Below the pieces are notes generated by a model. The model made no database searches. It was not told the DNA's origin and was given only the letters and a program-made list of their open reading frames with translations. From the IMG/VR virus record IMGVR_UViG_3300025502_000077: a stretch of DNA of 36,107 bases; one strand, given 5' to 3'. Within the stretch, counting starts at the first letter, position 1, and each line of letters starts with the position of its first letter. Shown here one piece after another: positions 2,812 through 36,107 of this stretch. A program made the position numbers and the translations under genes. Source of the stretch: a virus.

Positions 2812-2979
2812 ATGGTCGAAACAACAAAGGAAGTACTTGACGTAGCCGCAGCTTCTACCGCTGTACTTTCAATGGCTGCTTGGTTACCGCCAGCAGCTTC
2901 CATACTTACAATACTTTGGCTTGGTATTAGGATATATGAGTCAGATACTGTACAAAGTATACTAGGGCGTACAAAATGA
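2812..2979 (+). CDS. Small membrane protein (55 aa), holin/antiholin-like; not in the supplied ORF track
   Basis: Translated by hand: MVETTKEVLDVAAASTAVLSMAAWLPPAASILTILWLGIRIYESDTVQSILGRTK. AGGGA RBS. Its stop overlaps the next start (ATGA at 2976-2979). A hydrophobic core is followed by a charged tail. Confidence 0.45.
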   Translation: MVETTKEVLDVAAASTAVLSMAAWLPPAASILTILWLGIRIYESDTVQSILGRTK

Positions 2980-3353
2980 GCATATTGACTGCAATCCTTG
3001 GACCAGTAGCGGGTATAGCTAAGAGCTACCTAAACAACAAAGCTGAAGAAAAGCAAGCCGTACATCAGCGTAAGTTGTCAGTCATAGAGAACGACGCTAA
3101 CTGGGAAGCTAAGATGGCTGAAGCGTCTAAGGACTCCTGGAAGGATGAGTTCTGGACTATTGTTTTAGCTATCCCTATCTTCATGATTGGCTACGCTATT
3201 GCTGCTAATGATGTTACAATCATAGCTAGAGTAGCTACAGCTTTTGAAGCACTAGAAAAATTACCTGAGTGGTATCAATACCTGCTGTTTATAGCTATAT
3301 CATCTAGCTTCGGTATACGCGGAGTTAATAAAATAATGCAGATGAGGAAGTAA
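2976..3353 (+). CDS. Membrane protein resembling the '3-TM holin for gene-transfer release' family (125 aa)
   Basis: N-terminus ILGPVAGIAKSYL, then a charged helix (KAEEKQAV...), then W-rich hydrophobic segments. Family assignment is from memory of the architecture and is not verified. Confidence 0.5.
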   Translation: MSILTAILGPVAGIAKSYLNNKAEEKQAVHQRKLSVIENDANWEAKMAEASKDSWKDEFWTIVLAIPIFMIGYAIAANDVTIIARVATAFEALEKLPEWYQYLLFIAISSSFGIRGVNKIMQMRK

Positions 3354-3355
3354 GA

Positions 3356-6300
3356 ATGGGTCGTGGCAGAGGAAGACAAGAAGCAAGGCGACTTGCTGAA
3401 GAAGAAGCATTACGTAGACTAGCTGCTGGGACGGCTGTGCTGCCTCCTGTAACAGTTCTTCCTTTAGAAGCTCCAAGCACCGTAGCTAACCCTGTTAACT
3501 GGAAAAGCGCGGCTATTAACAAAGATGATAGTTATTTCTCTAGTCAATACGGTGTATATGGTTTAGACGCTCCTGATCCCGATAAAGAAAGCGAAACAGG
3601 TTCTATTGAGGCTGCTTTGTCTCGTTTAGCTAACGCGCCTCAAAGAGAAGCTAACTCTGCAATTTACAGCACGTTTACTGACGAAGAAAGAGTTCTCTCT
3701 ACGCAAACTAATCTTCTTAAAAAATACGGTATTACTTCTGCAAACATTGGTAATAAAGTTTTAACTGACGATCAGATGTTTGAGTTAACTTCTAAGTTAG
3801 ACAATGAAATTACAGACTGGCAGACAACTAACCTAAGCACTCTAGCGTCAGAAGATCCAGAAGCTTTTGCAGCAGAATACGGCAAGCTGTACGAAACATC
3901 ACAGATAAAGTTTTTAAGCTCCTTGTATGAGTCAGGCGCTTTAGATAAAGACGAATACTTAAACGCTTCTGCTCAGACTTTAATGGCAGGCGATAAATAT
4001 AATACAGATGTTTATATAATAGACAAAGGTAAATTGTACGCAGCTCCTTCTAACTCTGCAGGCAACCCTAATTTTTACAGTGAAGTTGTTTTGTTCCCTG
4101 ACCAAGCATCAGGCCAAAATCAATACAACACTTTTAACTATAAAATAGGAAGTCAGTCACCTACCTCTGATTTTGATGCGAGCGGTGTAACTAAGTTCTT
4201 AAATAGCGCTCCTATTAAGATGGCTGCTTCAATGTTGGGGTTACCTGGCGTTGCTGTTTTAACAGGCTTGAAAGCAGCTAACGGAGAGACTCTACACGCA
4301 GAAGACTGGGCTACTTTAGCTATAGCAGGTCTGGGAGAGGTGGCGCAGGCTAAAGGTTTTGATGCAGCAGAAGCAGGTTCTAAAGCAAACGTAGCTGGTA
4401 ACGCCGCTGTTGACTCTGCTATTGCGGAGTATAACGCATACGCTTCTGGGATGCCGGCTGGCACATTTATACCGCCGAATTACACTGCTGTATACGACGC
4501 AGCCTATAATTCTTCAATTGCAGCAAGTGGTGTTACAACTACTTTTATGGGAATTGATCTTGCTAAATTTGCAGAAAACGCTGATTTAAGCACTTCTGTA
4601 AGCCAGGATGTCTTAGACGCTGTCTCTGCTTTAGAAGATGCCGCTAAAGGTCAAGGAGACGGTGTTGTTTATAACTTTCTTGAGGATACAACAAACTCTT
4701 TAGGCGAAGACTTTAATGCTTCAAATATTGACCTTATAATAAGTGCTTTTGATACTGTTGTCAATGACAGGGTTGAAAGAGAAGCTAAAGCTGCTGAAGT
4801 TGCTAGGGTTGCTCAAGAAGCTAGAGTAGCAGAGGAAGCAAGAGTTGCTGAAGAAGCTAGAGTTGCTGAAGAAGCTAGAGTTGCTGCAGAAGCTAAAGCT
4901 GCAGAAGAAGCTAGAGTAGCAGAGGAAGCAAGAGTTGCTGAAGAAGCTAGAGTTGCTGCAGAAGCTAGAGCTGCAGAAGAAGCTAGAGTTATTAGGGACG
5001 CTGAAATAGCAGAAGAAGTTAGGGTTGCAGAAGTAGCGAGATTAGCTGAAGAAGCCGCTAAAGTTGAAAGAGAAGCCGCAGAAGAAGCTGCTAAATTAGC
5101 TGAAGAGGCTGCAAAAAAGGCTGAGGAAGAAGCTATAGCTAACGCTGAAGCAGAGAAACAAGCAGCCCTGGATCTAAAAGCTGCTGCAGAAGCTAAGGCA
5201 GCTCAAGAAGCCGCCGACAGAGCTGAAGCTGCTAGAGTAGAAGAAGCCAGGCTTGCCGAAGAAACAAGAGTTGCTGCAGAAGCTAAAGCTGCAGAAGAAG
5301 CTAGAGTAGCAGAGGAAGCAAGAGTTGCTGAAGAAGCTAGAGTTGCTGCTGAAGCTCAAGCTGCAGAGGAAGCTAGGGCTGCTCAAGAGAAAGCTGAAGA
5401 AGCTGCTAGAGTTGCTGCTGAAATAGCTAAAGCTGCTGAAGAAGAAGCCGCAGCAAACGCTGAAGCAGAGAGACAAGCTGTGTTAGATCTACAAGCAGAG
5501 GCAGACGCTAAGGCTGCTAGAGAAGCAGAAGCTAGAGCTGAAGCTGCCAGAGTAGAGGCTGCTAGAGTTGCTGAAGAAGCTAAAGCGGCTGCTGAGGCTA
5601 AAGCGGCTGCAGAAGCTAAGGCAGCCAAAGAAGCAGAGGAAAGAGCTACAGCCAAAGCTGCTGAAGAAGCGAGAGTTGCTGAAGAAGCTAGAGCTGCAAA
5701 AGAAGCTAAAGACGCCGCAGACGCTAAAGCTGCTGAAGAAGCTGCTAAGACAGCCGCTGAGGTTAAAGCTGCTGAGGAAGCTCAAGCCGCTGCTGACGCT
5801 AAAGCCGAAGAAGATAGAATAGCTGAGGAAGACAGAGTAGCAGAAGAAACTAGGCTTGCTAGAGTTGCTAAAGCTGCTGCAGACGCTCAAGATGCTGCTG
5901 ATGCTGTAGCTAAAGAAGAAGCTAGAGTAGCTAAGGAAGAAGCAGAAGAAGCTTCTAGAAGAGCTGCTGAGATTTCTAAAGCTGCTGAAGAAGAAGCTAA
6001 AGCAAACGCTGAAAAAGAGAAACAAGCAGCCCTAGACTTACAAGCTGAAGCAGACGCTAAGGCTGCTAGAGAAGCTGAAGCTAGAGCTGAAGCTGCTAGA
6101 GTTGAAGAGGTAAGAGTTGCTAAAGCTGCTGTTGATGCTGCTGAAGCTGCCAGAGTTGCAGAGGAAGCTAGAGTTGCACAGGCTGCTGCAGATGCTCAAG
6201 CCGTTACTGACGCTAGAGTTGCAGAAGAAGCTAGAGTTGCTGAAGAAGCTAGAGTTGCTGAAGAAGCTAGAGTTGCTCAAGAACTAGCTGACGCTCAAGT

Positions 6301-7396
6301 TGCTGAAGAAGCTAGAGTTGCTGAAGAAGCTAGAGTTGCTGAAGAAGCTAGAGTTGCTGAAGAAGCTAGAGTTGCTGAAGAAGCTAGAGTTGCTGAAGAA
6401 GAAGCTGCCGCTGCCGAAGTAACCATAACTGATCCAGCAACAGGCGAGGAGATAATAGCCACTCAGCCTGATCAAGTTGAAACAGAGCAGCCTCTGCCTG
6501 ACTTCGAGCTTGATGAAGAACCTATTGTCTTTGAACCACCTACGGACACTTCTGGAGGAGCAGCAGAAGGAGGAGCAAGTGCTGGAGGCGGGGCAGGTGC
6601 TGGTGGAGATGCAGGCGACAGTGCGCCAGTCTCTGATGACATAGTGTTAAGACAGGTGTACGAGGCCGTGTTAGCAGACGAGATTCCTATTGACGAGTAC
6701 ATTAGGATGGGAGGCAGGTTTGTCGATGAGCTACGAGCAGGAGTATCTTTAGAAGACGCTCAAGGTCCGTATGAAGAACCTATTATAGATGACACCCCTA
6801 TTGAGCTTGACAAGACTGGCGAGCCTCTAACTGAAGAAGGTCCGTTGTTCCCTAGCGACTTCTACGAAGATCCTACAGATTCTTCTGTAGGTTCTACAAT
6901 TGACTCAGATCCTGTAACAGTTCCAACAACAGGAACAGTAGACGAAGGTGTAGGCACAGGCGGTGTTGGTATGGATGGCTTAGACGGCCTTGATGGCACA
7001 GATGGTCTTGACGGTTTAGACGGTTTAGACGGCCTCGATGGCTTAGACGGCCTTGACGGAGCTGCTGGAGACCAAGGAGACCAAGGAGACCAAGGAGACC
7101 AAGGAGACCAAGGAGACCAAGGAGACCAAGGAGACCAAGGAGACCAAGGAGACCAAGGAGACCAAGGAGACCAAGGAGACACTGGCGAACAGGGGCTACA
7201 GGGCGAGAAAGGGGAACAAGGCATGATGTCACCTACTAGAACTACTGATATGGTGTTTGCAGACCTGTTTAAATCTAAAATAGACATTGGCAGTAACCAG
7301 GTAGTTTCTCCTTATGTACAGTTACAACAACGAGGCTTGCAAGCTCCTGCTCAGCAAGGAATGCTAACAAACTCTAACAATTTTAGAAGGCGATAA
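3356..7396 (+). CDS. 1346-aa hyper-repetitive structural-module protein: unassigned N-domain, ~550-aa Ala/Glu/Arg helical array, acidic linker, collagen-like (G-X-Y)29, short C-terminal domain
   Basis: Long uninterrupted ORF with a GAGGAA RBS 6 nt upstream. The coding frame is supported by non-repetitive flanks. It lies between the membrane-protein cluster and the tail-tubular genes. Confidence 0.9.
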   Translation: MGRGRGRQEARRLAEEEALRRLAAGTAVLPPVTVLPLEAPSTVANPVNWKSAAINKDDSYFSSQYGVYGLDAPDPDKESETGSIEAALSRLANAPQREANSAIYSTFTDEERVLSTQTNLLKKYGITSANIGNKVLTDDQMFELTSKLDNEITDWQTTNLSTLASEDPEAFAAEYGKLYETSQIKFLSSLYESGALDKDEYLNASAQTLMAGDKYNTDVYIIDKGKLYAAPSNSAGNPNFYSEVVLFPDQASGQNQYNTFNYKIGSQSPTSDFDASGVTKFLNSAPIKMAASMLGLPGVAVLTGLKAANGETLHAEDWATLAIAGLGEVAQAKGFDAAEAGSKANVAGNAAVDSAIAEYNAYASGMPAGTFIPPNYTAVYDAAYNSSIAASGVTTTFMGIDLAKFAENADLSTSVSQDVLDAVSALEDAAKGQGDGVVYNFLEDTTNSLGEDFNASNIDLIISAFDTVVNDRVEREAKAAEVARVAQEARVAEEARVAEEARVAEEARVAAEAKAAEEARVAEEARVAEEARVAAEARAAEEARVIRDAEIAEEVRVAEVARLAEEAAKVEREAAEEAAKLAEEAAKKAEEEAIANAEAEKQAALDLKAAAEAKAAQEAADRAEAARVEEARLAEETRVAAEAKAAEEARVAEEARVAEEARVAAEAQAAEEARAAQEKAEEAARVAAEIAKAAEEEAAANAEAERQAVLDLQAEADAKAAREAEARAEAARVEAARVAEEAKAAAEAKAAAEAKAAKEAEERATAKAAEEARVAEEARAAKEAKDAADAKAAEEAAKTAAEVKAAEEAQAAADAKAEEDRIAEEDRVAEETRLARVAKAAADAQDAADAVAKEEARVAKEEAEEASRRAAEISKAAEEEAKANAEKEKQAALDLQAEADAKAAREAEARAEAARVEEVRVAKAAVDAAEAARVAEEARVAQAAADAQAVTDARVAEEARVAEEARVAEEARVAQELADAQVAEEARVAEEARVAEEARVAEEARVAEEARVAEEEAAAAEVTITDPATGEEIIATQPDQVETEQPLPDFELDEEPIVFEPPTDTSGGAAEGGASAGGGAGAGGDAGDSAPVSDDIVLRQVYEAVLADEIPIDEYIRMGGRFVDELRAGVSLEDAQGPYEEPIIDDTPIELDKTGEPLTEEGPLFPSDFYEDPTDSSVGSTIDSDPVTVPTTGTVDEGVGTGGVGMDGLDGLDGTDGLDGLDGLDGLDGLDGLDGAAGDQGDQGDQGDQGDQGDQGDQGDQGDQGDQGDQGDQGDTGEQGLQGEKGEQGMMSPTRTTDMVFADLFKSKIDIGSNQVVSPYVQLQQRGLQAPAQQGMLTNSNNFRRR
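4771..6418 (+). repeat. Coding repeat array encoding the EEARVA-type helix (hexapeptide units, three larger super-repeats, long exact duplicates)
   Basis: There is an exact 83-nt duplicate at 4877-4959 and 5267-5349 (offset 390 nt). The block ...AEEEA(I/A/K)ANAE(A/K)E(K/R)QA(A/V)LDL(K/Q)A... recurs three times, at about 5116, 5440 and 5988. Confidence 0.9.
6218..6401 (+). repeat. 18-bp tandem repeats GTTGCTGAAGAAGCTAGA (3 copies at 6218-6271, first copy has one substitution; 5 perfect copies at 6299-6388, plus a partial copy)
   Basis: Counted directly in the sequence; each unit encodes VAEEAR. Confidence 0.9.
6959..7222 (+). repeat. Collagen-like G-X-Y tract (29 triplets), including a perfect 9-bp microsatellite GGAGACCAA x12 at 7067-7174 (GDQ)
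   Basis: Triplets read GGV GMD GLD GLD GTD (GLD)x6 GAA (GDQ)x12 GDT GEQ GLQ GEK GEQ. The GLD codons vary synonymously, whereas the GDQ units are nucleotide-identical. Confidence 0.9.
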
Positions 7397-9823: not shown

Positions 9824-10782
9824 TGTCTTTATTTACAGGTAATAATATTTCAGACATGCTTGGAGCTGGTGGTGCTTATTACCTAGGCAATCAAGCTTCT
9901 GATATTGCTAGAGAAGGTGGCGATGTAGCGAGAAACTTAGCAAATGAAGCAGCTACTACTTCAAGAGCAGAGTCAGCTTTTCAGCCATACACTGTAACAA
10001 GCAACTTGGCTAACATAGGTACAACTGCTCAAGGTGGTTACAACCTCAACCTTTCACCTCAACAGCAACAGCTTCAAAACCAGCTTCTAGGGCAATCTCA
10101 GCAGTTGTTTGGACAGGTGGGTCAAGACCCCGCAGCTCGCGCACAAGGCATCTACGAGCAGATTAGGGCTACTCAGCAGCCTGGTGAAGAGAGAGACCGC
10201 TTAAAGATGCAAGAGAACTTGTTTGCAGGTGGTCGTGGTGGTATACAGACTGCACAGTATGGTGGTTCTCCAGAGCAGTTTGCTTATGAGCAGGCTAGAG
10301 CAGAGTCACAGAACACTGCTGCATTAGGCGCACGAGAGCGTGTGTTAGCAGAAGAAGCTCAAGCGTTGACCTCAGCTCAAGGTTTGATGGCTTCTGGTTA
10401 CAACCCACAACAGCAAGCTCTATCGCTTCTGGAAGGTAGTCAAATACCTGCTGGTTATGCTTCTGCTGGTCAACGCACAGGCGCTGAGCTAAGCAGTCAG
10501 TTACGTGGTAGAGGAATTGAGTCTTACGTACAAGGACAGGACTTAGGTAACAGAATTGATCTACAGACTCAAGACGCTATCTTAGGTCTATTGACGGGTC
10601 AGCAGATGTCTCCGCTGCAGCAAGCGCAGATAGCTGAGATCTATGCAGGTATGGGTCAAGAAGCGCCAGGTGGCGGTGGTCTTATTGGTAAAGGTTTTGA
10701 TTGGTTATTTGGAGGCAACGGCAACAGCGAGTATGGCAACATTGGCGATCCTTTTGCTGATAATTTTGGAGGTACGCAATAA
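9823..10782 (+). CDS. Gln/Gly-rich internal virion / ejection-type protein (319 aa)
   Basis: Position equivalent to T7 gp13/14; ATGA-type coupling with its neighbours; low-complexity Q/G/A composition. Confidence 0.5.
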   Translation: MSLFTGNNISDMLGAGGAYYLGNQASDIAREGGDVARNLANEAATTSRAESAFQPYTVTSNLANIGTTAQGGYNLNLSPQQQQLQNQLLGQSQQLFGQVGQDPAARAQGIYEQIRATQQPGEERDRLKMQENLFAGGRGGIQTAQYGGSPEQFAYEQARAESQNTAALGARERVLAEEAQALTSAQGLMASGYNPQQQALSLLEGSQIPAGYASAGQRTGAELSSQLRGRGIESYVQGQDLGNRIDLQTQDAILGLLTGQQMSPLQQAQIAEIYAGMGQEAPGGGGLIGKGFDWLFGGNGNSEYGNIGDPFADNFGGTQ

Positions 10783-12146
10783 TGGCTAACATAGATTACG
10801 CAGGTTTATTGACAGGCATAAGCGGTCAGAACCAACGACCAAGTCCGTTTACTTCTCCTTCAAGAGATCAACAGCTTCTAGGCTTTGCAGCTAAACAGAA
10901 CGAAGCATTGACTGGCCGCCTTGGTGGCATGTTTGGACTACAGCAGCAAGACCCTGTAGAGCTTGCTAAGACAAAGCTAGTGGGGCTAGATCCTACAAAC
11001 CCAGCAGATCAAGCACAGTTTATACAGCTGTTGAATATTGTTGATCCTGCGAAGGCTGCTCAGTTTAAACAGCAGTTGGATTCTAAAGCTACTTCGTTGA
11101 CTAAGAGTACAAATGATGCTACTACAGTGGCTGACGCATTGCCGGCACAGTACGCATCGTTAGCAAAAGCTGTTCGTAATAAAGTACCTGGCGCTCTTCA
11201 AAGAGCAGTTGAAATACTAGGAGCTGCTCCAACAAAACCAGAAGAAGACCCCGCTTTAGTTAAAGAGTATAGGTTTGCGAAAACACCTAAAGGAGGAAGT
11301 TTTGAAGGCACGTTACAAGACTGGGCAGAGCTTAAAAAAGCTAGAGGAACAGTTATAAAAACTACTCAAACTCCTGCAGAAAAAATGACAGAGAATAATT
11401 TAGAGCGTCAAGCAAAATATGTTGATATAACTGCACCTGTAGCTGCAACGGCTGTCACGGATAAGCAAGCAGCAAACGCTATACTGAATGAAGTAGAAAA
11501 AGGTTTTGACACAGGCATGGTTGCTAATTTTGTAGCTAACCAATCTAAAAATTTACAAGGTATTTTTCAACTAGCGGGCGTAGCTTATCCGGAATCTTTT
11601 TCTGAGAAAATTAAAGATCAAGCTGTTCTAAAGATTTTACAGAACGAAGCTATTATACCAATGATGGATGCGCAAGGTAAAGGATTTACAGATAAAGATT
11701 TAGAATATCAGCAGGACGTGCTACCTGGTTACACCCAGCCTTGGCAGTATAACGAAGCAGCGGCAACAATTAAGTTACATAAAGCTGTAAATCAGATTGA
11801 AGAAAACACTTTTGCTAATCAACGTGCTAACTTATCTGAAGTGACTCCATTAGACCATACTACTTTATGGGATGATTATTTAACTAAAATCCCTAGAAGT
11901 AAAATAGCAGCAGCTAAAAGAAACGGTATTGATTACAAAAGAATGGAAGTCATACAGGACAGTGCTAATCTTTCACAATACTGGGTAAAAGATAAGCCTA
12001 GAGGTTTTACCTTGTCGATCAAAGGCGAGAATAAAGATGTAACTTGGGCTGATATTAAAGACACTGCCGCAGCTAATGACATGAACATTAGAGAATTTTT
12101 AGCAGCTTATGAAAACCAAGGTTTAATTGTAAAAGGCGTTTACTAA
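10782..12146 (+). CDS. Internal virion / ejection-type protein (454 aa)
   Basis: Position equivalent to T7 gp15; translationally coupled; no catalytic motif recognised. Confidence 0.5.
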   Translation: MANIDYAGLLTGISGQNQRPSPFTSPSRDQQLLGFAAKQNEALTGRLGGMFGLQQQDPVELAKTKLVGLDPTNPADQAQFIQLLNIVDPAKAAQFKQQLDSKATSLTKSTNDATTVADALPAQYASLAKAVRNKVPGALQRAVEILGAAPTKPEEDPALVKEYRFAKTPKGGSFEGTLQDWAELKKARGTVIKTTQTPAEKMTENNLERQAKYVDITAPVAATAVTDKQAANAILNEVEKGFDTGMVANFVANQSKNLQGIFQLAGVAYPESFSEKIKDQAVLKILQNEAIIPMMDAQGKGFTDKDLEYQQDVLPGYTQPWQYNEAAATIKLHKAVNQIEENTFANQRANLSEVTPLDHTTLWDDYLTKIPRSKIAAAKRNGIDYKRMEVIQDSANLSQYWVKDKPRGFTLSIKGENKDVTWADIKDTAAANDMNIREFLAAYENQGLIVKGVY

Positions 12147-15097
12147 TGGCAATATTCGACACTTCTAACGTAATCTTTGAGTCAGGAGCTTCTAGCAATG
12201 GGGTTGTTTTTGATACAGGTATTGAGTTCCCTAACGAAGTCATTGCAAGACTAGCTGGCGAAAAAAGAATAGAAGAGCTGCAAGGAGGAGCAACACCGCC
12301 TACATCTTTTCCAGAAGTTCCTGTTCTTTCTGATCAAGGCACTAATGTTACTCCACGCCCAGAGGAAAGTTTACTACAACAAGCAGGAGAAGAGCTACGC
12401 TATCGTACAGCGCCTGTTGTAAATCCTGTAATGGAAGTGGTAGACGCTATGGTAACGCCTATTTATAGTTTTGGCTATGACATGGCTGTGCGGGTTCCTA
12501 CTTACTTAGCTACTATGGGAACTAGAAACTTAGAAAACCTAGCGGAATCTTCTAACGTAAACATAGACATGGAGTGGGAAGGCGGCTACGACATAGGAGT
12601 TCCTGATTTATTCAGAAACAAGAGTTTTGTTAATGATGCTGAAACTGAACAATTCTTAGACAAAGGCGGTTTTTACGCTTCTCTTGGTCTTGGTATTACC
12701 AGTGCTGCTCGTGCTTCAATAAACATGTTAGGCGCTGGCTTTGTCAACTACGGGAAAAGAGGAGTCGCGCTAAACCCTAAAACTGGTCAGCCTTTTGTAG
12801 GAGTAGAAGGAGCGCGGACAGGTATCACAAGGTCTCTAGCAGAGTCTTCGCTACCTACTGAAGCTAAAGTAGCGTTAGCTATGGCTGTGGCGGGAGAAGT
12901 AGCTTCTGCTGCTACTGGCTCAGACAGTGCTCTTATAGCTTTGCCTGCTGAAATTGCTGGTGGTTTTGCAGCAGCGCGTAAACCAGCTACTTATTTAGAA
13001 GCTGCTACTGGCATTATTAAGTACGCAGACACAGGTGTTGAGGTAGTAGGTAAGAAAATAATAGACGCTTTTGATGCTAAGTTTGGGGAAGACGCAGTAA
13101 CTTTAGCTAGTCAACGAATTAGAGGAGAGAGTGTCAGCCCTTTAGAAGCTAAACTAGCTTTAGAAACTGCTGACGATGCTTCTATTTTATCTGTAGCTCA
13201 ACAAACAAATGACTCAGGTATCCTCACTTTAGAAAGAGCGTTAGCTGCTGAGGACAGTGTTTTTGCAGGTTTTGTAGACGACCAAGTTGATCAAGCTCAG
13301 TACTCGTTAGCGAGAGAATTAGAAACTCTAATGAATCCAGAAAGCAGTTCTTTAGATTGGACAGCACTAAAAGACTTCTTGCCTAAGATACAAAACGACT
13401 TGATAGCTCAAGTAGACGACAGAGTTATGATTGAGACAGAGAAGCTTACTAAGCTTTTAAAAGTTTACGATGGCGATGTCACTAAAATGTCCAAAGAGTT
13501 TGAGGAATCTTTTAATAAAATATACGCAGATGTTAAACAACAAGAAAACAACCTCTGGCAGCCTATAAACGACTCTGTAAAGATACCGACTAAACCTTTA
13601 GTAGACGCTGTTGAAACAATTGTCGCTAACTCCAGCTCACAAGCAGTGCTTCCTGCCGAGGAGTTTGCTAACATTCTAGGAAAAGGTGTTGCACGTACAG
13701 GTAAAGGCTGGAAGACGTTTGAAGTTACTCCTGATAACAAGAAGCGGTTAGCTGAAGCAGGCGTAAAAGTTAAATGGCCTGACGCACCTCTACAAACTGT
13801 AGAAGCTCCTCTAGTCCTTAGAGATTTAAGAAGCAAGCTCAACTCCATGGCTAGAAGCGCAAACGCAGCGACAGACCCTACTTTTCAATATAACCAGAAA
13901 GCTCTAGGGGAAGCTCAGCAAGCTGCTTTAGACAATATAACACTAGGTGTTGAAAGTGTTAATCCACAGCTTCGTGAGTACTATTTAGCGGCTACTGCTT
14001 TCTCTAAAAAAATACACGACACTTTCACTAGAGGAACTTTTGTACCCAAAGCTAAGAAGGCGGTTAAAGAGAAGAAGCTAGAGACAATGGTAGGCGGTCA
14101 AACAGCCAAGCAAACTGACATGGATATTGTTGCTAGGGAGATGGAAGAAGTCTTTAATTTAGCAACGTCTGGCAGCAGCGCCGCCCAGTCTAACGCTTTA
14201 AAACAGGCTGAAGGCTTTCTTCTTGCTAAGTTCCAGGCTCAGGTAAACCCTAATAAACTAGAAGATTTCAAGGCGTTTGAAACTTCCCACTCGTCTTGGA
14301 TAGAAAGATTCCCAGCAGTAGGTGAAGCTATTAAAGCAGCAAAGAAAAAGGCGAGGTCTCAAGGGAAAGTAGTACAGAACGCTGAAACAGCAGCGGAAGT
14401 GGCGCGTTTGGACGACTTCTACGGAGTGGCTAACATGACGCCAGAGCAGGTTATGGATGTTATTCTTAAATCTTCAAGCCCTACACAAACTTCTGCCAGG
14501 TTCCGCAAGCTTTTAAGCACTAACAAAGAAGCTCTTGCTGTATTTAAAGAACAGGTTGCTAATCGTGTGGTTGCGCAATCAATGAAAATTGTTGATTCGC
14601 AAGTAGCAGGTAAAGGCAACGTAGAGCTTATTGATCCTGTTAGTTTTTCAAAAATTCTAAAAGATTTTAAGCCGTTGACTGCCGTGTTTAACACTGCTGA
14701 ACAGAAAGGTTTAGAGCTGTTGCTTAGAGATGTAAGCAGTATAAGTAAATCTCTATCTGCTAAAAGAGGATATACAAAAGTTGCACCCCCTAAAACAAGT
14801 GCTGGTCTAATACTAGCGGCTAAGTTAGCTGCTTTGAAAGGCGTTAACTTACTAGCCGGTTCTTCTTCTATTGTGTTGGCGGGCACAGCTTCTAACGCCG
14901 CAACTAAAGCAATACAAAACTTAGGAGTAGAAGCGTCTAGTAAAGTTCTAAAAGAAGCTTATAAGAACCCAGAGCTTATGAAAGTTCTCCTTAGTAAGGA
15001 TATCACAAGGAACCAGCTACAACTTTTGCAGTCAGGTAGGTTTAAAACAGGACGTATTATTTATAACGCTTTAACAGAGAAGGCAACTCAGCAGTAA
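12146..15097 (+). CDS. Large internal virion / ejection-type protein (983 aa)
   Basis: Last and largest gene of the structural operon (T7 gp16 position). It is alpha-helical and Ala-rich. No transglycosylase or RNAP motif was recognised. Confidence 0.5.
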   Translation: MAIFDTSNVIFESGASSNGVVFDTGIEFPNEVIARLAGEKRIEELQGGATPPTSFPEVPVLSDQGTNVTPRPEESLLQQAGEELRYRTAPVVNPVMEVVDAMVTPIYSFGYDMAVRVPTYLATMGTRNLENLAESSNVNIDMEWEGGYDIGVPDLFRNKSFVNDAETEQFLDKGGFYASLGLGITSAARASINMLGAGFVNYGKRGVALNPKTGQPFVGVEGARTGITRSLAESSLPTEAKVALAMAVAGEVASAATGSDSALIALPAEIAGGFAAARKPATYLEAATGIIKYADTGVEVVGKKIIDAFDAKFGEDAVTLASQRIRGESVSPLEAKLALETADDASILSVAQQTNDSGILTLERALAAEDSVFAGFVDDQVDQAQYSLARELETLMNPESSSLDWTALKDFLPKIQNDLIAQVDDRVMIETEKLTKLLKVYDGDVTKMSKEFEESFNKIYADVKQQENNLWQPINDSVKIPTKPLVDAVETIVANSSSQAVLPAEEFANILGKGVARTGKGWKTFEVTPDNKKRLAEAGVKVKWPDAPLQTVEAPLVLRDLRSKLNSMARSANAATDPTFQYNQKALGEAQQAALDNITLGVESVNPQLREYYLAATAFSKKIHDTFTRGTFVPKAKKAVKEKKLETMVGGQTAKQTDMDIVAREMEEVFNLATSGSSAAQSNALKQAEGFLLAKFQAQVNPNKLEDFKAFETSHSSWIERFPAVGEAIKAAKKKARSQGKVVQNAETAAEVARLDDFYGVANMTPEQVMDVILKSSSPTQTSARFRKLLSTNKEALAVFKEQVANRVVAQSMKIVDSQVAGKGNVELIDPVSFSKILKDFKPLTAVFNTAEQKGLELLLRDVSSISKSLSAKRGYTKVAPPKTSAGLILAAKLAALKGVNLLAGSSSIVLAGTASNAATKAIQNLGVEASSKVLKEAYKNPELMKVLLSKDITRNQLQLLQSGRFKTGRIIYNALTEKATQQ

Positions 15098-19290: not shown

Positions 19291-19824
19291 TTACCCTTCT
19301 GTGTTCTCATGGATTACCGGTTCACAATCGCCGTGGTGGGCGAAGATACCGTGTAGTTCTTCTCGCGCTTTCCTAACTACTGCGTCTGCTTCTTCTGGTG
19401 TCTTGTAAGACCCTAGATGAATATTTTTGCTCTCTAAGGTAATATAGGCTTTCCAAGATTTTAGGCGTGTGTCCCAGCTGACTCCTTTATAGCCGCTTGT
19501 GTTATTTCTATTGATCTTTCTGTTATGCTGATTCTGGCCAGCAGTAACTGCTCTTAGATTTTCAATACGATTGTCTGAGCGCTTACCGTTTATGTGATCT
19601 ATTGTTTTAGGCAGGTATCCTTTATGCATTAAAAACACAAGTCGATGTGCCCTATGTTTTTTGTAATTTAGGTCTATTTTTATGTACCCATGCGTATCGA
19701 CAGTACCAGCGATAGCGCCTTTTTTTACTTTTCCGTTTGCTTTAGATTCTCTCCAAATTAAATCACCAGTTTCTTTATCATACTCAAACAACTCGTTTAA
19801 TAAACCTACAGTTAAATCTCTCAT
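19291..19824 (-). CDS. Free-standing HNH homing endonuclease with an AP2-type DNA-binding domain (177 aa)
   Basis: HNH_3-like DHINGKRSDNRIENLRAVTAGQN, followed by SGYKGVSW...SWKAYI...HLGSYKTPEEA (AP2/integrase-type domain). Confidence 0.75.
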   Translation of the reverse strand: MRDLTVGLLNELFEYDKETGDLIWRESKANGKVKKGAIAGTVDTHGYIKIDLNYKKHRAHRLVFLMHKGYLPKTIDHINGKRSDNRIENLRAVTAGQNQHNRKINRNNTSGYKGVSWDTRLKSWKAYITLESKNIHLGSYKTPEEADAVVRKAREELHGIFAHHGDCEPVIHENTEG

Positions 19825-34798: not shown

Positions 34799-35815
34799 AT
34801 GGCTATATTTAGAGGAGATGGAGGTGCTGGAGATTCCAACACAGACTCCACTCTTAACTTAGTTACTGCCCAAGCTGTTATAGCCACTACGAAAGCAAGC
34901 GATGCAGCCGCTAGTGCCGTAAGTGCTAGTGACTCAGCTACAAGTGCAACAACATCTAAAGATGCAGCAGCTACCTCAGCTACCAATGCAGCTAACTCTG
35001 CACAAGGTGTTGAGAGCGCTGCCACAGCGGCCACAGCAAGTGCTACAGCAGCGTCTACGTCAGAAACTAACGCAGCCACAAGCGCCACAGCGTCAGCTAC
35101 ATCAGCTACAGCTGCTAGTGCCTCTCAGACAGCTTCTAGTGCCTCTGAGAGCAACGCAAGCACATCGGCCACCACTGCCACTACTAAAGCCTCAGAAGCG
35201 GCTACAAGCGCATCTAATGCGTCTACAAGCGCTTCTACGGCAACGACCAAAGCATCAGAGGCGGCGACTAGTGCAAGCAATGCCTCAACCTCCGAAAGCA
35301 ATGCTGCTACGTCAGCCTCTGGTGCATCTACTTCCGCTACAAACGCAGCTAACTCTGCAACAGCATCTGCTGCCTCTGCTAGCGGTGCTGCTACATCTGC
35401 TACTAACGCTGCTAACAGTGCTACAGCGGCTGGTACGTCTGAGACTAACGCAGCAACAAGTGCTACAAGTGCTTCTACTAGCGCAACAGCAGCTGCAGCC
35501 TCTGAGACAGCAGCAGCGACTAGTGCAACTACAGCCATAACTAAGGCTAGTGAATCTAGTACCTCAGCAGCTAACGCAGCTACAAGCGCATCTACGGCCT
35601 CTACACAGGCTACTAATGCAGCCACTAGCGCAACTGCTGCGGCTAACAGTGCTACAGCTGCTTCTACCAGCGAGACTAACGCAGCTACATCAGAGACTAA
35701 CGCAGCTGGCAGTGCTACATCAGCAGCTAACAGTGCAGCAGCAGCTATAGTAACTCTTTCTAATCTTAACGCAGACAACATGACTACTGGTACACTCAAC
35801 GGTGGAACTTACTAA
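34799..35815 (+). CDS. Fibre protein made almost entirely of Ala/Ser/Thr 'tail fibre repeats' (lambda Stf-like), 338 aa
   Basis: AGGAG RBS. The N-terminus MAIFRGDGGAGDS is followed by ~290 aa of ..SETNAATSATSASTSATAA.. repeats like those of lambda Stf (Phage_fiber_2 type). The protein ends ...GTLNGGTY. Confidence 0.7.
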   Translation: MAIFRGDGGAGDSNTDSTLNLVTAQAVIATTKASDAAASAVSASDSATSATTSKDAAATSATNAANSAQGVESAATAATASATAASTSETNAATSATASATSATAASASQTASSASESNASTSATTATTKASEAATSASNASTSASTATTKASEAATSASNASTSESNAATSASGASTSATNAANSATASAASASGAATSATNAANSATAAGTSETNAATSATSASTSATAAAASETAAATSATTAITKASESSTSAANAATSASTASTQATNAATSATAAANSATAASTSETNAATSETNAAGSATSAANSAAAAIVTLSNLNADNMTTGTLNGGTY

Positions 35816-35827
35816 AGGTATTTAAAC

Positions 35828-36107
35828 ATGGCAACAAAAATTGTAACTAAAAATAGCTCCACAGCTTCGAGCGTACCTACAGCAGCGCAGCTTGTTCAAG
35901 GAGAGCTGGCGGTCAACGTAGCGGACAAGCGGCTATATACTGAAGATAACGCAGGTGCTGTTGTTTTGCTGGCTGACGGCACTAAGCTAGATGGCATTGA
36001 AGCCTTAGCAGATGTTACAGATGTAACCAACGTCACAGCCGCTGGTGCTTTGATGGACTCAGAGCTTACTAGCATTGCAAGCGTTAAAGCTCTTGACCAA
36101 GGCGTAG
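35828..36107 (+). CDS. Tail fibre protein, N-terminal part (continues at nt 128 via the duplicated junction)
   Basis: The ATG at 35828 gives MATKIVTKNSSTASSVPTAAQLVQGELAVNVADKRLYTEDNAGAVV..., a conserved fibre N-terminal motif. It is in phase with ORF 1-1833. Confidence 0.85.
   Translation, partial: MATKIVTKNSSTASSVPTAAQLVQGELAVNVADKRLYTEDNAGAVVLLADGTKLDGIEALADVTDVTNVTAAGALMDSELTSIASVKALDQGV
35981..36107. repeat. Right copy of the 127-bp exact duplication (identical to 1-127)
   Basis: Same string as 1-127. The offset of 35,980 keeps the reading frame of the fibre ORF. Confidence 0.95.

Follow-up and report, generated by a model that had tools for sequence, protein, structure and literature searches.

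Helical spacers built from repeats are known from tape measure proteins (TMPs), single alpha-helix (SAH) domains, and the shafts of fibres. In the TMPs of long-tailed phages, internal tandem repeats change the length of the tail. SAH domains of the ER/K motif type and engineered (EAAAK)n linkers are long helices free of Pro and Gly, with no hydrophobic seam and with E-R/K pairs at spacings i+3/i+4. Domain II of TolA and the Pro-rich rod of TonB are spacers that span the periplasm. The array described here is encoded in the virus record IMGVR_UViG_3300025502_000077 of IMG/VR, a stretch of 36,107 nucleotides referred to as the window. It is a length-hypervariable, single-helix-like spacer of an uncharacterised 1346-residue protein, the carrier, the gene of which lies beside the tail adaptor gene. 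That the array is a genuine helical spacer segment of variable length is highly probable. Three of its properties are unusual: the range of its length, from 0 to about 576 residues among closely related phages with unchanged flanking domains; its sequence type, a helix of hexad period without heptads; and the recurrence of the same hexad repeat in several large, unrelated proteins from marine phages that have not been cultured. The carrier family is found only in metagenomes and holds a key position by the tail adaptor.

Repeats, length series and predicted structure of the array

The array is encoded entirely in frame within a single open reading frame (ORF; Table 1), and the surrounding stretch free of Pro and Gly extends to 576 residues (aa 451-1026, nt 4706-6433). 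Ala accounts for 40% of the array, Glu for 24%, Arg for 10%, Val for 9%, and Lys for 6%; Pro and Gly are absent. The 18-nt unit GTTGCTGAAGAAGCTAGA is present in 12 exact copies (starting at 4844, 4862, 4934, 5324, 5675, 6236, 6254, and 6299/6317/6335/6353/6371) and four more with one mismatch, whereas 100 shuffles give an expectation of 0. A first-pass annotation of the window, made from the sequence alone, had correctly listed five perfect tandem copies at 6299-6388; of the three further copies that it placed at 6218-6271, two are exact, and the one at 6218 has a synonymous change (GCA for GCT). The 83-nt duplicate that it reported is exact and cannot be extended, and the EEARVA hexapeptides, estimated at about 19, number 20. 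The block AEEEAxANAExExQAxLDL...AARVE recurs three times (aa 589-629, 694-734, and 877-917), as had been noted, with a length of about 41 rather than about 45 residues. Tandem Repeats Finder (TRF) reports arrays with periods of 18, 36, 54, 72, 81, 99, and 315, and a 300-nt repeat with a spacing of 549 nt was also found. The array is far beyond chance, real, and translated. Reverse-strand ORFs that overlap the array, such as 5489-6025, are a consequence of its low sequence complexity.

Relatives of the carrier were sought in IMG/VR, JGI metagenomes, and protein collections, and the longest segment free of Pro and Gly was used as the measure of spacer length. The segment of 576 residues in the window contains three core blocks. 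Three blocks are also present in the segments of 553 residues in L001 and L009, the N-terminal domains of which are 99% identical to that of the window, and of 414 residues in L022 (94% identity). The segment has 364 residues and two blocks in L016 (87%). A single block remains in L002-L005, from four samples (238 residues, 90%), in L006-L008, from three samples (186 residues, 87%), and in the recombinant L043 (169 residues). In P0003, L018, and L019 (about 46%), the N-terminal domain joins the Pro-rich linker directly; the array and its core blocks are absent, and the longest segment has at most 41 residues. Length polymorphism had been predicted in the first-pass annotation, and across the contigs of the relatives, of which nine independent ones have segments of 169-553 residues, it is present and large, spanning 0 to 576 residues. 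The reading frame is kept across all insertions and deletions (indels) among the relatives. The array is optional, and the fold of its neighbours does not need it. That it constitutes an optional insert in a conserved modular protein is a point absent from the earlier annotation.

The core blocks are 92-100% identical between genomes, by contrast with 70-76% nucleotide identity among the three copies within the window. Because orthologous blocks are far closer to each other than paralogous ones, the large duplications are old and have not been homogenised, and concerted evolution of the three blocks is rejected. Relative to L001, the window has gained 69 nt within 6196-6307, and its Gly-X-Y arrays are 78 nt shorter at one site and 9 nt longer at another. 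These indels sum to multiples of 3, and the equal total of 1346 residues in the two proteins is a coincidence. The last hexad run is perfect over 104 nt in the window and consists of diverged copies in L001, which shows a recent amplification of this run; the hexad runs turn over fast. At the 83-nt tract, copies A and B of L001 and L009 differ at four sites, and copy B of the window has the copy A state at all four. This is the mark of gene conversion, which the first-pass annotation had suggested. The window differs from L001 at 8 of 119 positions in copy B and at 1 of 119 in copy A. The array grows, shrinks, and homogenises at three scales: by slippage of 18-nt units, by duplication of blocks of about 315-550 nt, and by gene conversion between dispersed copies.

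The copy number could be wrong if repeats had been collapsed or expanded in short-read assembly, as was feared earlier. Perfect repeats do exist in the array, the identity of the 83-nt copies might in theory have arisen from consensus calling, and no other contig encodes exactly the product of the window, the copy number of which has no independent replicate. However, none of the perfect runs (104, 114, and 83 nt) reaches the length of the terminal overlap of the window, 127 nt, which suggests an assembly with k = 127. The sequences of L001 and L009, which come from different samples, are in agreement and match the window up to position 6195; the shorter variants of 1006 and 986 residues were recovered identically from four and three independent samples, respectively; and the frame is intact throughout. 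An assembly artefact is very improbable.

For aa 451-1040, the single-sequence mode of AlphaFold yields two predicted helices, 452-635 and 656-1019, at a mean pLDDT of 65. Together with the 576 residues free of Pro and Gly, this agrees with the very long helix proposed in the first-pass annotation. The sequence at the low-confidence break (aa 636-655) is ordinary hexad repeat; therefore, the break is probably the result of the model bending a very long helix. The segment may form a hairpin instead of a continuous rod, and the 80-nm length of such a rod would be arithmetic only.

The dominant periods of the array are 3 and 6. A signal at 3.5 is absent both from the array as a whole and from every 84-residue segment of it: the normalised Fourier power at this period is 0.1-2.9, compared with 22-35 in a tropomyosin control. 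A canonical coiled coil is disfavoured by the missing hydrophobic heptad periodicity. With a hexad repeat, the Val and Ala residues of an alpha-helix are distributed among three of its faces, which leaves no seam along which a classical coiled coil could form. Pairs at i+3/i+4 amount, per 100 residues, to 32 of opposite charge and 7 of like charge, whereas the control has 24 and 20. The spacing of Glu and Arg had been said to suit a single helix as well as a coiled coil; it fits the single helix, and the coiled coil is the less favoured of the two. On paper, the array is closer to an SAH or to an (EAAAK)n-type linker than to a coiled coil. It shares with SAHs the long predicted helix without helix breakers and the dense pairs of opposite charge; its net charge of -63, rather than near neutrality, and its Ala content do not conform to the type. 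The sole match of the array in the PDB is marginal (5vj4, E 0.004), and a search of the literature on SAHs in phage virions found nothing relevant.

The hexapeptide V-A-x-x-A-x formally fits the pattern [LIV]-[GAED]-x2-[STAV]-x, and on this reading would fold as a left-handed parallel beta-helix like those of LpxA and LpxD rather than as an alpha-helix. Folds of the beta-helix type are common in phage spikes, and weak NCBIfam matches to LpxA/LpxD were obtained (E 3.5e-4). However, their score of 20 bits, compared with a cutoff of 226, reflects the six-residue period only, AlphaFold gives helix throughout, the abundant Ala and Glu are accompanied by no Gly or Asn for turns, and the hexad periodicity is missing from more than half of the array. 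A beta-helix is extremely improbable.

The hexad repeat is not limited to the carrier. A degenerate DNA pattern for (VAEEAR)3 matched 24 IMG/VR contigs, and outside the carrier family the hexad array is part of large phage proteins of at least four further kinds. In L027, L029, L041, and L042, the EEARVA array has 4 or 6 copies in otherwise identical sequences, and copy-number polymorphism is therefore not confined to the carrier family. The protein of these four contigs has a TMP-like repeat motif, VGDVFEFVIGAVEDVG, at its N-terminus. The hexad protein of L035 has a glycine-zipper N-terminus, that of L032 a signal peptide and an Fn3-like domain, and that of L033 a Pro-rich array; the hexad array is also found on contigs of 62-111 kb (L024, L039), and a gene for a "virion structural protein" precedes the hexad gene in two of these lineages. 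In the protein collection, the array is matched best by FtsY A-domains, (AAEARAAEEARI)n, of Aeromonas and Motilimonas (phmmer E-value 1e-40). The FtsY proteins of Aeromonas (P0045-P0164) have A-domains of the form (AAEARAAEEAR[IV])n and total lengths of 580, 592, 604, 616, 628, 640, and 652 residues; this 12-residue ladder indicates a repeat polymorphism at the level of strains. The hexad helix is a recurrent, slippage-prone spacer, probably convergent, and not the marker of a single family. Its recurrence in phage proteins and in bacterial FtsY was absent from the first-pass annotation.

The carrier family and its genome

Table 1 Features of the carrier gene and of the adjoining adaptor gene in the window
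Feature	Position (nt)	Strand	Remarks
Array-bearing ORF, 1346 aa	3356-7396	+	net charge -156, pI 4.2
Basic N-terminal tip, aa 1-44	3356-3487	+	MGRGRGRQEARR...LPLEAPSTVA, begins MGRGRGR; 88% identity kept in P0004
N-terminal domain, aa 1-471	3356-4768	+	defines the metagenomic family; 87-99% identical in close relatives
Best-conserved core of the family, aa 281-330	4196-4345	+	Gly-rich hydrophobic stretch, then GETLHAEDW; Kyte-Doolittle maximum 1.53
Helix array, aa 472-1020, 549 residues	4769-6415	+	net charge -63
First hexad (VAEEAR, 18-nt) sub-array	4780-5055	+	TRF period 18, 15.3 copies
83-nt duplicate, copy A	4877-4959	+	donor state
Core block 1	5120-5242	+	AEEEAIANAEAEKQAALDL...AARVE
83-nt duplicate, copy B	5267-5349	+	converted to copy A state relative to L001, L009
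Core block 2	5435-5557	+	closest to the lone block of short variant L006 (85% nt identity)
Core block 3	5984-6106	+	
Terminal hexad sub-array	6212-6401	+	104-nt perfectly 18-periodic run at 6298-6401
Acidic Pro-/Gly-rich linker, aa 1021-1204	6416-6967	+	holds the conserved mini-domain
Conserved mini-domain, aa 1094-1129	6635-6742	+	DDIVLRQVYEAVLA..YIRMGGRFVDELR; inside the linker
Gly-X-Y run, aa 1205-1289, 85 uninterrupted residues	6968-7222	+	(GLD)n then (GDQ)n; 9-nt tandem repeats
C-terminal tail, aa 1290-1346	7229-7393	+	family-wide motif SPTRTTDxxF at start, NSNNFRRR at end
Tail adaptor, 215 aa	7399-8046	+	Pfam SU10_adaptor; downstream neighbour; anchors the genomic slot common to all relatives

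The N-terminal domain of the carrier has no match in Pfam, PHROG, or NCBIfam, none in the PDB by sequence or by family profile, and none in 185,579 bacterial and archaeal genomes. No homologue was found among cultured phages by tblastn with the window protein and two distant relatives. The AlphaFold model of the domain, based on an alignment of four sequences, is poor (pLDDT 42). The window protein matches PHROGs only in its low-complexity parts, namely collagen-like tail fibres and two families with no known function. In the Gly-X-Y run, Gly occupies every third position, and Pfam Collagen is matched with an E-value of 2.6e-12. Two tandem arrays that the first-pass annotation did not mention underlie this run: about nine copies of GGCTTAGAC at 6977-7059 encode GLD, and 12.7 copies of GGAGACCAA at 7067-7180, with 100% identity and a perfect run of 114 nt, encode GDQ. 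Two candidate homologues were rejected. Similarity of the carrier to the long tail fibre gp12 of SU10, or to any other SU10 ORF, is undetectable, and the carrier is likewise unrelated to gp36 of CRP-3, a 1292-residue protein that a distantly related roseophage encodes close to its portal.

An exhaustive profile search yielded 42 family members, mostly of 500-800 residues and all metagenomic, and the names of the members of the family cluster offer nothing beyond "hypothetical protein". The window protein has the profile match of the N-terminal domain, the GETLHxxDW core, the TRTTDxLF tail, and the slot upstream of the adaptor gene. The genes of the relatives occupy the matching slot, and in L040, where the termini are kept and the middle of the protein differs, the gene order is identical. 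In L010-L012, the slot is taken by P0004, which has only the N-terminal 44 residues, a variant of the hydrophobic core, and the motif TRTTD in common with the carrier, and is otherwise unalignable. The middle of the protein in other subfamilies consists of unrelated tandem helical repeats, such as (PVINTADDILDATGDVIGDTVDVVADTFE)n in P0017 and (VGDVIEDVAQVAGD)n in P0022 at the position of the array, of Pro-rich (TPVE)n arrays, or of Gly-rich arrays. L023 and L026 from IMG/VR have a like layout, in which a hexad/AEEAEAARVAAEE array of more than 470 residues is combined with about 35 copies of (TPVE)n, which is a second kind of repeat-built rod at the same position.

The modules that follow the array also vary. 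Calcium-binding loops similar to those of EF-hands and dockerins replace the mini-domain of the window in L002 (aa ~820-835), L043 (aa ~665-685), and L025 (aa ~565-600); examples are DANNDGVVTDAELD, DINGDGRVTSADALALRK, and DTDGDGIYDVVD...DSDGDGTGDN. L002, P0003, L018, and L019 have period-2 (G-X)n repeats (GTGEG/GTGDG) where the window has Gly-X-Y, and the Gly-X-Y run is interrupted by GIGIDG in L001 and L006. In L022 (9816-13405), the gene is split into ORFs of 395 and 798 residues by a frameshift near codon 390, which is either a sequencing error or a real disruption.

The first and last 127 nt of the window are identical (1-127 = 35981-36107), which makes it a complete circular assembly of 35,980 bp. 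A fibre ORF listed as 70-1833 probably has its true start before the circle junction. The phage is a marine podovirus of about 36 kb from an uncultured lineage, and its gene content is in line with the podovirus assignment made earlier; the nearest cultured phages are of the HMO-2011 type, with a portal identity of only ~22-24%. The plus strand encodes the large terminase, portal, scaffold-like protein, major capsid protein, two fibre-like proteins, and two small membrane proteins, followed by the carrier, the SU10-type adaptor, a 519-residue nozzle-like protein, and proteins of 77, 319, 454, and 983 residues. Ribonucleotide reductase, exonuclease, DNA polymerase, and primase-helicase are encoded on the opposite strand. 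The carrier ORF starts 3 nt past the stop of the ORF upstream and ends 3 nt ahead of the adaptor gene.

Directly upstream of the carrier gene, the ORFs 2371-2799 (142 aa) and 2976-3353 (125 aa) encode strongly hydrophobic segments (Kyte-Doolittle maxima of 2.75 and 2.12), and their products may be holin-like or other membrane proteins; the 125-residue product belongs to phrog_2524, of unknown function, and its gene invariably adjoins the large gene. Past the capsid gene, a 338-residue ORF (34799-35815) contains 21- and 42-nt tandem repeats that encode heptads rich in Ala, Thr, and Ser; it matches tail-fibre PHROGs, and its C-terminal part is swapped in L022. At the end of the structural block, the 454- and 983-residue proteins (10782-15097) are replaced by unrelated ones of 506/653 or 414/703 residues in L022 and L011, phages in which capsid, portal, adaptor, and nozzle are still 95-99% identical. 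The 454- and 983-residue proteins could determine host range rather than be ejection proteins. Searches of the PDB with the 519-, 454-, and 983-residue proteins, aimed at identifying ejection proteins, gave no match. In the replication block, a gene for an HNH endonuclease (19291-19824, minus strand; phrog_99, E 8e-70) lies between those for a metallophosphoesterase and the exonuclease.

Possible roles of the carrier

The helix could serve as a semi-rigid spacer that sets the distance between the N-terminal domain, with its basic tip and Gly-rich hydrophobic core, and the C-terminal tail with its TRTTDxLF motif. We infer that selection acts on the length or reach of the helix and not on its sequence. 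The carrier is tentatively regarded as a tape-measure-like internal or ejection protein, in preference to an external fibre. In this role, it would exit through the tail channel in the form of a thin thread and cross the host envelope, in a way comparable to the helix of TolA in the periplasm. Several features lean towards such a role. The spacers of 5 of 34 relatives match 13 PHROG tape-measure families (E 9e-10 to 1e-4), only over tandem acidic helical repeats. The best-conserved element of the family is a Gly-rich hydrophobic stretch, basic N-termini are conserved on an otherwise very acidic protein, and almost the whole protein consists of thin elements, the helix and the Pro-/Gly-rich linkers, that would be able to pass the tail channel. 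The N-terminal domain is conserved like the core virion proteins (94% compared with 95-99%), whereas the fibre-like genes and those of the 454- and 983-residue proteins are replaced between the same genomes. Furthermore, the same hexad array is present in the proteins of L035 and L027, the N-termini of which have a strong glycine-zipper character.

Other observations weigh against an ejection role and a single helix. The window protein itself matches no PHROG tape-measure family, and the matches of its relatives may reflect composition, not homology. The hydrophobicity of the conserved core is borderline for a membrane segment. The genes for the 77-, 319-, 454-, and 983-residue proteins, downstream of the nozzle gene, already occupy the position of the ejection proteins of P22, T7, and SU10. 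An uninterrupted Gly-X-Y run of 85 residues is typical of trimeric external fibres, and a threefold range of length among near-identical phages disfavours a tight ruler. With 44% of its residues charged, the array falls short of the textbook ER/K single helix, and its net charge is by no means close to neutral. The presence of the carrier in the virion and its ejection are both predictions.

It is possible, but rather unlikely, that the carrier forms a tail fibre or tether on the outside of the particle, probably as a trimer, with the basic N-terminal tip docked on the adaptor and with the helix and Gly-X-Y run as a shaft, the variable length of which would tune the reach to the host surface. 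The gene adjoins that of an SU10-type adaptor, and adaptors of this type dock the N-termini of fibres (PMC9509320). The fibre is also in line with the mosaic modules, including the putative calcium-binding loops, and with the threefold tolerance of length, which suits an appendage; the tip that is kept while the body is swapped in P0004 is a typical fibre pattern. However, the helix lacks an amphipathic seam, heptad-based or other, by which a trimer could be held together, the N-terminal domain is not hypervariable as the other fibre-like genes are, the 55 C-terminal residues are small and highly conserved, unlike a receptor-binding tip, and there is no similarity to the SU10 fibre gp12. The Gly-X-Y run matches collagen-like tail-fibre PHROGs and Scl/Lcl adhesins; nevertheless, Gly-X-Y arises automatically from any 9-nt repeat with a Gly codon, and its register is lost in the four relatives with period-2 repeats, so a triple helix is not conserved. 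Less probable still is that the array represents a largely neutral expansion of repeats, a slippage-prone, low-complexity insert that a linker tolerates and the length of which has no function. The array is missing entirely in some relatives, its length changes even between 99%-identical genomes, two other perfect tandem arrays occur in the same ORF, and the hexad is also found in the dispensable A-domain of Aeromonas FtsY, with its 12-residue steps between strains. By contrast, a neutral insert would not be expected to have all 576 residues free of Pro, Gly, stops, and frameshifts, or to retain a helix-favouring composition in its older, diverged core blocks. In addition, some extended repeat module is present at the array position in every subfamily, and hexad arrays occur in at least five different phage protein contexts.

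A narrower version of the preferred ejection role, in which the single-helix spacer, or a Pro-rich or other rod in the relatives, sets the reach of a DNA conduit across the envelope, is unlikely. Slippage-driven changes of length would then adapt the phage to the thickness of the envelope or surface layer, and the idea of a podoviral trans-envelope ruler could be tested directly on the natural series of 0-576 residues. More generally, if the length is functional, the series is a means of testing how podoviruses set their reach, be it through the envelope or towards the host. If the length has no function, the array clearly illustrates how a structural gene of a phage is inflated by slippage and gene conversion, and it warns that gene length in such regions is strain-specific.

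Comparison with described systems

The tail of phage SU10 (Kuravirus) includes the adaptor gp11, the long tail fibre gp12/gp13, and the ejection proteins gp20-24 (PMC9509320). The adaptor of the window belongs to the same Pfam family, and the layout of the two genomes is broadly similar. However, the carrier gene is located upstream of the adaptor gene, not downstream, and the carrier has no detectable similarity to gp12 or to any other SU10 protein.

The carrier resembles the TMPs of long-tailed phages in that it is long and helical, is encoded in the tail gene region, and has length-changing repeats and a Gly-rich hydrophobic stretch, and the spacers of its relatives match PHROG tape-measure families. 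By contrast, the phage has the gene content of a podovirus and no tail tube to measure, the carrier has no heptads, and its gene is not positioned between those of tail chaperones and a distal tail protein. The repeat of the FtsY A-domains from Aeromonas and Motilimonas is nearly the same as that of the array. However, FtsY is the bacterial cytoplasmic receptor of the signal recognition particle, with an NG GTPase domain, and has nothing beyond the repeat in common with the carrier; the likeness is convergent or compositional, with no sign of a common function.

TolA is similar in its long helix rich in Ala, Lys, and Glu, for which KAAAEAKAAAEAKAAKEAEE at aa 742-761 of the carrier may be compared, and the TonB rod is similar to the Pro-rich (TPVE)n rods of the carrier relatives. 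The array is most readily compared with SAH domains and (EAAAK)n linkers, with which it shares the absence of Pro, Gly, and a hydrophobic seam, the dense pairs of opposite charge, and the presumed role of a semi-rigid spacer. It is distinguished from SAHs by its 44% of charged residues, 40% Ala, net charge of -63, and hexad unit, and, at 549-576 residues, it is far longer than is typical of them.

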